Shown here in pieces: positions 7,333 through 10,086 of a stretch of 32,154 nucleotides of DNA. The notes below the pieces were generated by a model. It was not told where the DNA came from. It saw nothing but the letters and a program-made list of their open reading frames with translations, and made no database searches. Within the stretch, counting starts at the first letter, position 1; every line of letters starts with the position of its first letter. Source of the stretch: a virus (Duplodnaviria > Heunggongvirae > Uroviricota > Caudoviricetes); the IMG/VR virus record IMGVR_UViG_2531839665_000013; one strand, 5' to 3'. A program made the translations under genes and the position numbers.

Positions 7333-8277
7333 ATGATTTTTCTCAAGAATGGCGAAAGTTTTATTCGCGTGAATGACTGGGCAGAAATTCAGGCGAGAGA
7401 GTCTTACTATCCCAAATTAGAGTTAAATGATCAGCAACTCTCTGACGTTTTTGGTTACTACGATGACCTACCAGAGGAAATTCCATGTGGAAAATCAAAT
7501 TGCCGCAAAGGGCATAAAAAGGGATTTCTGGTAGTTACGAAAGAAGGATTTGAAACGAATATCGGCCATGTATGTGGAACTAATGTTTTTGGTATAGCCT
7601 TTGATAATTTAGCAATAGAACTTTGCCGAAAAGCAGATTTCCATCGCTTACTTACCGCACTTAAAGAGGCAAAAGATGATATTTTTAGCTATTACAAACT
7701 CAAAGCCAAAATCGAATCTGGGCGTCCATCACTAACTGAGGTTGCTCATAGAATACTTGACATGAAAGACCCTAAAATCATCGGGCGTGCAGCTTATCAA
7801 ACATTGAAAAAGATGGCTGCTTCTGGTGATGGGCGTGTTTTCCGCTCAAGATTAAAAAATACAGAAGAGCTAGAACTGGACGAAATTATGTCCCAGAAGC
7901 AAACAAGCGACTCAGCTCCAAAAGTTAACAACAAAAACAAAACCGTAAATGAACTTATTGGGGTAATACAATACCCTGAATGCTTGCTGAATGATTATGA
8001 CATTGCTCTTCTTTATGAAAGAGATATAAAAATGGTTCTGGAAAAATTAAACAAATGTACCCCAGATGAATTGACTGAAAGAGAGGTGTTGTCTTTTGGA
8101 ATAAAGGTTTCAAGATTAAGAGAACGCTTTAACTTTGTTCAGGAACGCTTAGAAAAATCCAGGGTTTTTGCAACAAGAGAAAACCTTAAACCTTTACGTG
8201 CATTACTTAACATTCAGAAATCTGTAAGCAATAAAGACAAATTACTATTTAAGAAATTTATGGAAAATTTACCATAA
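7333..8277 (+). CDS. Hypothetical protein (314 aa), AT-rich, antisense to the late operon
   Basis: Long ORF with AAGGA RBS; visibly more AT-rich than flanking phage genes; followed by a stem-loop at 8285-8302. Confidence 0.7.
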   Translation: MIFLKNGESFIRVNDWAEIQARESYYPKLELNDQQLSDVFGYYDDLPEEIPCGKSNCRKGHKKGFLVVTKEGFETNIGHVCGTNVFGIAFDNLAIELCRKADFHRLLTALKEAKDDIFSYYKLKAKIESGRPSLTEVAHRILDMKDPKIIGRAAYQTLKKMAASGDGRVFRSRLKNTEELELDEIMSQKQTSDSAPKVNNKNKTVNELIGVIQYPECLLNDYDIALLYERDIKMVLEKLNKCTPDELTEREVLSFGIKVSRLRERFNFVQERLEKSRVFATRENLKPLRALLNIQKSVSNKDKLLFKKFMENLP

Positions 8278-8284
8278 TTAAAAA

Positions 8285-8302
8285 ACCCGCTATAAAGCGG
8301 GT
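8285..8302. terminator. Bidirectional stem-loop (ACCCGCT-ATAA-AGCGGGT); T-run on the minus side (candidate tR') and terminator for the 7333-8277 gene
   Basis: Read directly; A-run at 8281-8284 gives a T-run after the hairpin on the minus strand; sits about 110 nt downstream of the Q-like gene. Confidence 0.5.
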
Positions 8303-8413
8303 TCCGTGTTAATTTTTATATTGGCGCTAAACCCCATAATTAAAATGATACAAGACAATTTTATGCAAAGTCAAGTCGGTTGCTCAAAAATCTCTCCGCC
8401 AAAGCTGTTCAGA

Positions 8414-9229
8414 TCAGTAACTCGTTGCCTTCTCAAATTCTCTAGCCGCATGCCGCTCACCTTGATGCAGGATATCAACCAATTTTTCATAGAATGGTTT
8501 CCAATTGCGCGACCATGAAGACTGGTGCAGATCGGGAATGTATATTTGAATAGCTCGATGAACATTAGCTGATTTGATAGATACGAATCCCTTTCCACTA
8601 CAACGCTCGCAGATTTTAAACACTGGCACACCACGCTCGCTTGTGGCTTTGCGGTCCAGTACCTCTCCCTTTCCACCACAACGACACCTGGCACTTATCA
8701 CTCCCTTCCCTTTACATACATCGCAAACGACTGGTACAACTTCCGTTACCTCTGTCCATTTTTCCCAGTCTGACGGTCGAACAGCACGGGAGCGACTGGC
8801 CCAATATGGTGCTTTACCCCATGGGTATGAAACCTTACGAATGACCTGCTTACGGGGTGTTAGTCCGGTACCACTGCAACTATGGCATGTTACGCTGGTG
8901 GCCGCCGATCGGGAATACTCAGCAAAAGCAAACTGAGCCAGTACCAGCATACACCAGCCAAATTCACCACCAGCTGCTTTACGCACATTCTTCGGTGCAA
9001 TTTCCATCGCGTGACGCGCCAGCGCCTGGACTGCCATCTGCTCATCAGTCTTGCTGATACCGGCCTTCCCGAAGAAGGCCGCCAGGCCAAACCGCTCACG
9101 ATTGCTGGTGGTACCAATAGCCGCCATAACATCGGTGCCTGTAAGACGTTCCGGAGAGGTTCCTTTCACATCGTCGCCGATATACATTCCCTGAGGACTG
9201 AAGTATTTTAGCGATGCCTCAAGCTTCAT
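8414..9229 (-). CDS. Late-gene antiterminator Q-like protein (Cys-rich zinc-binding)
   Basis: 271 aa immediately upstream of terminator and late genes; several CxxC motifs (CHSCSGTG, CDVCKGKG, CERCSGKG); position and size fit Q of non-lambda families. Family assignment is by recollection only. Confidence 0.55.
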   Translation of the reverse strand: MKLEASLKYFSPQGMYIGDDVKGTSPERLTGTDVMAAIGTTSNRERFGLAAFFGKAGISKTDEQMAVQALARHAMEIAPKNVRKAAGGEFGWCMLVLAQFAFAEYSRSAATSVTCHSCSGTGLTPRKQVIRKVSYPWGKAPYWASRSRAVRPSDWEKWTEVTEVVPVVCDVCKGKGVISARCRCGGKGEVLDRKATSERGVPVFKICERCSGKGFVSIKSANVHRAIQIYIPDLHQSSWSRNWKPFYEKLVDILHQGERHAAREFEKATSY

Positions 9230-10086
9230 TATTCACACTCCCCAACCAGATTGAGAATGACCGCTGCACCGTCGTCTTCCATGCATTCACCCTTACCACT
9301 TGCCAGAAACCAGCGGCACACCTCCACGGCTTCAGCGCGTGTCACCGGTTTGATAGTTGCCAGCAATTTTTCAAGGTAGCGCTCCCGGTCATATACTGAT
9401 TCGTGATGCTCAGAGTAACCAAACTCATCGCCCTGTTCTTTAGTTGCAGTGTGGCGAACACTGTAGAGCCAGTCCCAGTAAACGAACTCGCGAACAACAT
9501 CAGACAGCGTATAAGGCTCAGGCAGCACATCGCGATATCCATCAACAAATGCCCGACGCTGTTCATCAATTTCGTTCATGCGGCTGCCGCCAATGCTTCC
9601 GGCTTTTTTCTCTGCCGCAGTCCAGCCCCAGAGATGATCGTTGATAAATTTCTGGGAAGACCTGATGACCCGCTCTGCTTCCACATCTTCGAGCGCTGCT
9701 TCATAGCTACCAAACGTAGCCCTGACTGATGCCGCTTTTTTGATGTTCTCCCGGGCGTTCCTGATAACCTGCGCAGGGTTATCCATGCCGATGATGCCGA
9801 ACGCAACCTGGAAAGGTTCGTAACCATTCGCCAGCAGATAACGCGAATAGCGTTCCTGAGCCTCTTTTGGGGAAATTTTAATTTTCACCAGCGCAGCCTC
9901 AGCAGCATCCAGATGTGCGGGTTCGTTCAGACGGATAACCTCCAGCACCCAAAGATAAGCATCAGTCTGCTTATGCCCGGTGATTCTCCGTTGCTCTGGC
10001 AGGGGCTTGATGTTTGCGAGGGCGGAGCTGTACGCTGCCGTCGGGATGGTGAATAGTGCTTTATGTTCGTTGTTATCAGTACGCAT
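9229..10086 (-). CDS. Hypothetical protein (285 aa), translationally coupled between primase and Q
   Basis: TAATG overlaps at both ends (10086 and 9229). Confidence 0.65.
   Translation of the reverse strand: MRTDNNEHKALFTIPTAAYSSALANIKPLPEQRRITGHKQTDAYLWVLEVIRLNEPAHLDAAEAALVKIKISPKEAQERYSRYLLANGYEPFQVAFGIIGMDNPAQVIRNARENIKKAASVRATFGSYEAALEDVEAERVIRSSQKFINDHLWGWTAAEKKAGSIGGSRMNEIDEQRRAFVDGYRDVLPEPYTLSDVVREFVYWDWLYSVRHTATKEQGDEFGYSEHHESVYDRERYLEKLLATIKPVTRAEAVEVCRWFLASGKGECMEDDGAAVILNLVGECE

Follow-up and report, generated by a model that had tools for sequence, protein, structure and literature searches.

A lone gene antisense to the late operon of a lambdoid prophage, and its family of predicted zinc-binding proteins, as a candidate for phage exclusion in the lysogen

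The gene described here was compared with the closest described systems, namely rexA-rexB of phage lambda, bstA of Salmonella phage BTP1, the cargo genes found between the antiterminator gene Q and the lysis genes of Stx and other lambdoid phages, and fused sensor-effector proteins of the CapRel type. The gene is an open reading frame (ORF) of 314 amino acids (aa) in the IMG/VR virus record IMGVR_UViG_2531839665_000013, a stretch of 32,154 nucleotides (nt) that is referred to below as the window and is a lambdoid prophage of Escherichia coli. With rexA-rexB it shares the expression logic, as relatives of the gene in Pseudomonas lie directly behind a cI-like repressor gene on the same strand, and it is likewise an accessory gene that is dispensable for phage growth. 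However, no sequence or fold similarity and no Pfam or PHROG match to the Rex proteins was found. Moreover, rexA-rexB is a two-gene operon in which a sensor is paired with a membrane channel, whereas the family studied here consists of a single soluble protein without a conserved partner, and in enterobacterial phages its genes sit behind Q and not in the immunity region.

BstA, which combines a KilA-N DNA-binding domain with a self-immunity DNA element acting in cis, was reportedly described by Owen et al. in 2021 as a single abortive-infection protein of ~300 aa encoded beside the repressor of Salmonella phage BTP1. The protein studied here resembles it in size, in being the product of a single prophage gene in a position where expression in the lysogen is expected, and in consisting of two parts of which the N-terminal one is conserved. 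In contrast to BstA, its N-terminal domain carries a predicted Cys-Cys-His-Cys (CCHC) zinc site, no match to KilA-N was obtained with Pfam (the protein, 64 relatives and 35 N-terminal domains) or with PADLOC, and no self-immunity element was identified for the gene.

The cargo between Q and the lysis genes (stx, tRNA genes, nanS-p, a DNA methyltransferase gene) occupies the same variable slot past the late promoter pR' and the late terminator tR'. It is exchanged in mosaic blocks, as the present gene is, and the family gene co-occurs with stx2i and stx2f. This cargo is co-directional with the late operon and depends on Q, whereas the family gene is antisense. Proteins of the CapRel type fuse a conserved effector domain to a variable phage-sensing domain. 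The family is also made up of prophage-borne single polypeptides with asymmetric conservation (mean pairwise identity of 41% in the N-terminal domain versus 23% in the helical domain), but it has no homology to CapRel and no toxin fold or catalytic residues that could be recognised, and the analogy is one of design only.

The same protein has one published entry. In Table S10 of DeWeirdt, Mahoney & Laub (Science 2026; PMC13092281), which holds 1,041 clusters predicted by DefensePredictor from 3,000 E. coli genomes, the cluster of WP_000576620.1 is listed as 'Predicted novel defense gene', with WP_096111884.1 as a member, a mean log-odds score of 4.67 and a range of 3.6-5.6; the HHblits and Foldseek columns are empty for this cluster, meaning no link to known defence. 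This entry is the same protein and cluster as the window ORF, and it consists of one table row, without a family description, positional analysis, structure or experiment. In the same study (PMC13092281), 45% of 94 cloned units protected; the accessions of the family are absent from the 118 cloned units of Table S6, and its motif is absent from the protein sequences of Table S8. The accession WP_000576620.1 occurred in no main text searched, and the Stx-phage comparison paper is silent on the gene. DS-40 of DefensePredictor, which has a similar size and score, was considered as a family member and rejected, as it is a transmembrane DUF6680-like protein.

Placement of the gene on prophages, plasmids and islands

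The recurrent placement of the gene is the strongest evidence for a role in defence and for expression in the lysogen. Of the 60 IMG/VR viral contigs with a family ORF whose gene positions were surveyed, about 36 have the gene in antisense orientation in the interval from Q to the lysis genes, and these include members that are only 25-30% identical. In enterobacterial prophages, the gene stands alone on the + strand in this slot; it is transcribed toward Q and away from the genes for holin and lysis. The same slot was found in four of the five contexts of close homologues, in prophages of Escherichia, Kluyvera and Ewingella. The Ewingella prophage has a Q of another family (PF06323), and some convergent neighbours elsewhere are proteins of 183-191 aa or 226 aa, which similar phages annotate as antiterminator Q. 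Therefore, the slot is used behind four different Q families. The gene was antisense in every Q-slot locus seen, that is, in the roughly 36 viral contigs and in the prophages that were inspected.

A second position was found in 8 IMG/VR contigs and in Pseudomonas genomes, where a gene for a cI-like repressor with HTH_3 and Peptidase_S24 domains immediately precedes it on the same strand. The spot just downstream of the cI repressor is that of rexAB in lambda. In Klebsiella phage ST13-OXA48phi12.2 and Pseudomonas phage Atpa001, the gene borders the immunity region, on the opposite strand from the early-left operon. A gene in the Q slot or in the repressor operon would be expected to be transcribed in the lysogen and to be turned off by induction, because under standard lambdoid regulation either the repressor operon is silenced or Q-modified polymerase runs past tR' in antisense to the gene. 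The preliminary description had read the arrangement in the window in this way and had proposed a gene for lysogenic conversion, exclusion or defence. Its architectural part held up, as a foreign unit antisense after pR'/tR' recurs behind the four Q families and the gene recurs with cI-like repressors; the function is kept here as a proposal.

The family is also carried outside phages. On conjugative plasmids of Vibrio vulnificus, the family gene is located among genes for HicAB, Hok, PemK, ParA and an integrase, and further members were found on Burkholderia plasmids and Pseudomonas megaplasmids. On chromosomes of beta- and gamma-proteobacteria, integrases made up 6 of the 150 neighbours scanned, and the neighbours of the chromosomal loci also include a Tn3 transposase, a resolvase, Gabija GajB (2 loci), type I and type IIG restriction-modification systems, PDC-S06 and AbiEii-like ATPases. 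When the islands were searched with seven queries (Q, terminase, portal, holin, lysozyme, integrase and S24 repressor), nothing was matched save the Pseudomonas cI-like repressors and one integrase. No partner gene is conserved across the family, and the sole recurrent neighbours are the cI-like repressor of Pseudomonas and a small convergent ORF.

This small ORF, of 74-96 aa, overlaps or abuts the 3' end of the family gene in the cI-linked Pseudomonas loci (L076-L083 and L143-L150); the one tested had no Pfam match, and a DUF1654 protein is encoded next to it. Same-strand genes follow the family gene in two phages, a 144-aa gene in ST13-OXA48phi12.2 (locus L087, 5639-6073, + strand) and a 329-aa gene in Atpa001 (locus L089, 4952-5941, + strand), both without a Pfam match; these are possible lineage-specific partners.

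The protein family and its predicted structure

The ORF is real and under purifying selection. The 314-aa protein matched phrog_7003 over its full length (E = 2e-118; phrog_7003 is labelled 'unknown function'), 13 close and 550 distant homologue clusters were found, and the ratio of nonsynonymous to synonymous substitutions (dN/dS) against orthologues was 0.06-0.11, which indicates strong purifying selection. Therefore, it may be concluded that this is a gene and not a chance reading frame. A 100% identical copy of window positions 7130-8420, with the whole ORF, is present in E. coli AUSMDU00002545, where it is annotated as WP_000576620.1, 'hypothetical protein'.

With clusters defined at 50% identity, representatives of 550 clusters were recovered in an exhaustive profile search of the family at E <= 1e-3, and of 293 clusters at E <= 1e-10; those in the set of 550 are, with few exceptions, 280-320 aa long and aligned end to end. 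The 13 close clusters came from a word-indexed search; their identity is 56-98%, and their hosts are Escherichia, Kluyvera, Ewingella and Yersinia. The hosts of the whole family include soil Burkholderiales, Pseudomonas, Vibrio and Enterobacterales. The preliminary description could relate the protein to nothing it recognised, and the searches agreed with this. No Pfam model scored above its cutoff (the best, DUF6852, reached 14.6 bits versus a cutoff of 27), no match was obtained in NCBIfam or, by phmmer, among PDB sequences, and neither a 64-sequence profile of the family nor a 35-sequence profile of the N-terminal domain gave an annotated match. A search for a known defence family, which had been proposed in the preliminary description, was negative: PADLOC-DB v2.0.0 gave 0 matches for the window protein at E <= 10, and among 64 family members only two had weak single matches (~1e-3). 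Weak Pfam matches of single members to DS-5A/DUF5830 and to the RIG-I C-RD were followed up, and DS-5A was rejected with an hhalign probability of 0.2%. The family is large, conserved and unannotated, and its alignments point to an invariant zinc site.

Conservation was counted over 131 full-length family members. Y43, C52, C57, G64, G78, C81 and G82 were invariant, H61 was kept in 130 members, F86 in 128, N284 in 126, N76 in 125 and E179 in 115. The family motif is CGL-x2-C-x3-H-x2-GY-x-V-x-T-x2-G-x-ETNIG-x2-CG, and C52, C57, H61 and C81 are read as the ligands of the CCHC zinc site. An AlphaFold model based on a deep alignment had a predicted local distance difference test score (pLDDT) of 95.7 and a predicted template modelling score (pTM) of 0.85; it superseded a model from a shallow alignment of 14 sequences, for which the pLDDT was 59. 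In the model, the N-terminal part (about residues 1-87) is beta-rich, its four ligands being spread over a zinc knuckle, a beta-hairpin and the beginning of a helix, and the remainder is all-helical apart from one beta-hairpin, with a variable loop of low confidence at ~189-203. This agrees with the preliminary description, in which a Cys- and His-bearing N-terminal third was followed by a helical remainder. The model had no fold match in the PDB or in BFVD.

No conserved set of residues of the catalytic type was evident among the 131 members; H79, beside C81, varies (K/H/N). The order of zinc knuckle, beta-hairpin and helix, together with the nearly invariant N76, is reminiscent of HNH or His-Me finger nucleases, and no Pfam HNH match was obtained. 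Such nucleases, with a zinc-stabilised beta-beta-alpha metal fold, have a catalytic His and Asn and a metal-binding His or Asn besides any structural zinc ligands. The only invariant His of the family, H61, is needed as the fourth zinc ligand.

The locus in the window

The features of the locus are listed in Table 1. As had been described from the sequence, the ORF is antisense to its surroundings: every adjoining gene is on the - strand, including Q, a 285-aa gene, the primase gene, the two tRNA-Arg genes and the gene for a NanS-p-like esterase. Its composition is also foreign, as the G+C content is 0.32-0.39 over positions 7150-8500 versus 0.49-0.59 on the flanks on either side. A composition unlike that of the surrounding phage genes and a patchy presence among related phages, both of which were found here, characterise prophage 'morons'.

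Table 1. Features of the locus, in window coordinates
Feature	Position	Strand	Basis or remark
314-aa ORF	7333..8277	+	WP_000576620.1 in RefSeq; unannotated ~300-aa protein family
N-terminal beta-rich domain with predicted C52/C57/H61/C81 site	7333..7626 (codons 1-98)	+	Alignments and AlphaFold2 secondary structure
Fast-evolving helical domain	7627..8274 (codons 99-314)	+	Model and alignment; E179 and N284 conserved
Shine-Dalgarno sequence AAGGA	7323..7327	+	5 nt before ATG
Conserved upstream block; putative own promoter and 5' untranslated region	7251..7332	+	Alignment of 7 upstream regions
Extended -10-like element TGATTAAAT	7281-7289	+	Within the conserved upstream block
Antiterminator Q (PF03589, E = 1e-51)	8414..9229	-	Pfam/PHROG match
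pR'-like late promoter TTGACT-18-TATCAT	8345..8374	-	Promoter scan; ~60 nt upstream of the terminator
GC-rich stem-loop	8282..8305	.	Strong - strand intrinsic terminator (late tR') and 3' end of the ORF's own transcript
tRNA-Arg genes (two)	6961-7127	-	
Decayed ileZ-like pseudo-tRNA	7138..7206	-	5' end at ~7201 is the left boundary of the variable block
NanS-p-like 616-aa esterase (DUF1737 + SASA + DUF6645)	4635-6485	-	

The ORF starts with ATG and has, as the preliminary description stated, a ribosome-binding site of its own, whose AAGG is invariant in an alignment of seven upstream regions. In the same alignment, about 80 nt 5' of the ORF are conserved, comprising GTGATTAAATAT and the Shine-Dalgarno sequence; GTGATTAAATAT is kept in five of the seven loci, and a sixth has GTGGTTAAATAT. 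This block may hold the promoter and the 5' untranslated region of the ORF.

At its other end, the stop codon of the ORF is abutted by a stem-loop that had been proposed to serve the late operon as a terminator as well. This proposal was borne out, since the structure scores as a - strand intrinsic terminator, with a stem of 10 bp followed by TTTTTT, and folds with -20.6 kcal/mol (z = -2.7). As the stem-loop follows a promoter that itself follows Q, the layout is Q, a pR'-like promoter, a short leader and tR', at which the ORF ends. In an alignment of six loci that spans the end of Q and runs through the whole family gene, a promoter with a conserved -35 element and extended -10 element, TTGACTTTGCATAAAA...TGTATGAT, was found ahead of the terminator; this is the form of the pR'-like promoter conserved in Q-linked loci. 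The terminator stems vary among the six loci by compensatory changes, and the T-run abuts the stop codon of the family gene. No Rfam RNA family was found within the ORF, and a Trp_leader match on the pR' leader was below threshold.

The ORF had also been placed between Q and the tRNA genes. The tRNA genes do adjoin it, but there are three tRNA-like genes, not two, and the nearest to the ORF is a pseudo-tRNA. Relative to the intact tRNA-Ile found in related prophages, it has lost 4 nt in the region of the D-arm and carries several base changes; it scored 36 bits with the Rfam tRNA model, was not called by ARAGORN, and is annotated in one phage record as 'tRNA-Pseudo-TAT'. Insertion of the family gene into ileZ with truncation of the tRNA gene was considered and rejected, as the tRNA is full-length, though decayed.

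The homology that the window shares with other prophages is interrupted at two points, ~7201 (5' end of the pseudo-tRNA) and 8586 (inside Q). Two independent comparisons placed the junction in Q at this same coordinate. When the Q of the window was compared with that of E. coli F719, identity was nearly complete over residues 1-212 and ~45% over residues 213-271, and the last ~58 codons of Q (8414-8586) are part of one mosaic block with pR'/tR' and the ORF. Therefore, the exchanged block consists of the C-terminus of Q, pR'/tR' and the family gene. In lambda, the C-terminus of Q is expected to need a match with its qut site. Because of this, linkage to the Q C-terminus would be expected for any cargo at this site, and by itself it shows no functional tie between Q and the gene.

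A second allele was found in E. coli behind the Q of F719; its product belongs to the family (hhalign probability of 100%) and is 26% identical to the window protein. Alleles so divergent in one slot represent allelic diversification at a hotspot. The preliminary description had proposed examining presence and absence across related prophages, and the distribution was found to be patchy. Only 22 of the 5426 complete E. coli genomes carry the window allele, and related prophages with homologous Q and tRNA genes lack the gene, carry the other allele, or have a methyltransferase remnant in its place; in prophages with a related Q, the slot is empty save for the methyltransferase remnant and an intact ileZ. 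Foreign composition, the gene's own Shine-Dalgarno sequence, the conserved upstream block, the terminator shared with tR' and the patchy presence suggest an autonomous unit.

Both alleles occur in Stx phages. Intact copies of the window allele lie between Q and stx2i in two food isolates; in the Stx2i prophage of E. coli CFIAFB20180511 (locus L084, 4419-5363), the family gene is located between Q and the toxin genes, and WP_096111884.1 is the family copy in the Stx2i prophage. Phage phi467 (locus L088, 4001-4875) has the second allele between Q and stx2f, where a frameshift has split it into two ORFs. With the family gene between Q and stx, late transcription toward stx must cross it in antisense.

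Downstream of the tRNA genes, the window encodes the NanS-p-like esterase without intervening stx genes, which makes it an stx-less 'stx region'. Two small RNAs, AgvB, an anti-GcvB RNA (6632-6693, + strand; 96.5 bits, above the gathering score), and STnc100 (6694-6886, - strand; 149.7 bits), lie between the tRNA-Arg genes and the esterase gene, in the position of the stx genes in Stx phages. AgvB is antisense to the late operon, as is the 314-aa gene. The 285-aa protein encoded between primase and Q (9229-10086, - strand) matched phrog_6204, a group of unknown function, with E = 2e-182; no Pfam domain passed the cutoff, and the protein is conserved beside the same type of Q in several E. coli prophages.

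Proposed role and alternative explanations

The explanation that we favour, and that we hold to be about evenly balanced between right and wrong, is that the gene encodes a single-protein intracellular exclusion or abortive-infection factor expressed in the lysogen. The gene would be an autonomous accessory unit, or 'moron', of the lambdoid prophage, and its product a soluble, two-domain, predicted zinc-binding protein. In the dormant phage it would be transcribed from its own putative promoter; upon induction, the Q-modified late transcription of the prophage would cross the gene in antisense and turn it off. The protein would protect the lysogen, or the host of any other mobile element that carries it, against incoming phages. 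The conserved N-terminal CCHC zinc domain would be the constant working part, which binds a conserved partner, and the fast-diverging helical domain would be the part for specificity or sensing. Because the protein is soluble and has no enzymatic motif, its action would probably be binding and not catalysis. The defence function, the expression in the lysogen, the antisense shut-off and the division of labour between the domains are all points that we infer.

Carriage by phages, plasmids and islands, the absence of an obligate partner, patchiness, allelic divergence, adjacency to defence genes and the machine-learning call are features that fit a conflict gene. Given these comparisons of sequence and position, a role in defence is plausible, and it was predicted independently.

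A number of findings weigh against this explanation. The DefensePredictor score of 4.67 is marginal, just above the strict cutoff of 4 (PMC13092281). Adjacency to defence genes is modest, being limited to a handful of ~40 loci, and many chromosomal neighbours are ordinary (major facilitator superfamily transporters, Hsp70/DnaJ, cation efflux proteins). No recognisable effector (nuclease, TIR, SIR2, protease, kinase or pore former) was found in the protein, no transmembrane or hydrophobic segment is visible in its sequence, and the mean net charge of the N-terminal domain (-1.1) and of the C-terminal domain (+2.9) gives no consistent charge for nucleic-acid binding. A consensus promoter scan called no + strand promoter for the ORF, because of which its promoter is described here as putative only. 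No experiment on any family member was found in the literature, Brenes & Laub 2025 lying outside the scope of that search.

A broader form of this explanation is put forward tentatively, as possible but doubtful. According to it, the gene belongs to a widespread family of single-protein immune factors (>500 clusters in Proteobacteria), in which a CCHC zinc beta-domain would be joined to a variable helical sensor; the genes would be stationed in a repressor operon or antisense behind a late terminator, and the element's own induction would switch them off.

Alternatively, the protein could be a lysogenic-conversion factor that binds a host component and alters host physiology (stress response, regulation or colonisation) without any phage defence, which we regard as unlikely. 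The evidence for expression in the lysogen serves it equally well, as do the solubility of the protein and its lack of a catalytic motif, and the neighbours in the 'stx region' include the host-directed cargo NanS-p and the anti-small RNA AgvB. However, the hosts of the family differ widely in lifestyle, from soil Burkholderiales to Pseudomonas, Vibrio and Enterobacterales, the allelic divergence at one slot is extreme, and defence systems adjoin several loci. Because of this host spread, divergence and adjacency, conflict genes fit better than niche-specific conversion genes.

It is also conceivable, though improbable, that the locus acts in the control of the late operon, where convergent transcription, and possibly the protein too, would damp leaky read-through from pR'/Q into the stx or lysis genes and thereby stabilise lysogeny or time lysis. 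In the Q slots, the gene is always directly after tR' and always antisense, with four Q families; it is inherited in one block with the Q C-terminus and pR'/tR', and in Stx phages it separates Q from stx2i or stx2f. Nevertheless, linkage to the Q C-terminus is what any qut-adjacent cargo would display, members also occur away from any Q or late operon, downstream of cI, on plasmids and on islands where the seven phage and integrase queries matched nothing save the Pseudomonas cI-like repressors and one integrase, and a purely cis effect leaves the strong purifying selection on the protein unexplained.

A role in competition between elements or in counter-defence, by which the protein, for instance as an inhibitor of a rival element or of a host defence, would help its carrier to become established or to persist, would suit a small soluble binder-like protein without an enzymatic motif that is carried by phages, conjugative plasmids and integrative islands alike, but is very improbable, since counter-defence genes are normally expressed early and are co-directional with lytic or leading-region operons, whereas this gene is antisense to lytic operons or lies within a repressor operon, and its DefensePredictor score is defence-like.

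Even if the family does not act in defence, it is a large, confidently foldable and unannotated family present on three classes of mobile elements. In Stx2i and Stx2f phages, where the gene is convergent between Q and the toxin genes, it could alter the basal expression of the toxin and lysis genes. If the broader proposal is true, self-immunity would be built in through transcriptional geometry, that is, by an antisense, Q-dependent arrangement in the late-terminator slot. If the protein is protective, it would represent a new single-gene defence family with a fold that matches nothing searched and a non-enzymatic mechanism; its placement would provide a search rule for others, namely a lone gene antisense just past tR' or at the tail of a repressor operon, and the gene would be a concrete case of self-immunity by antisense late transcription.

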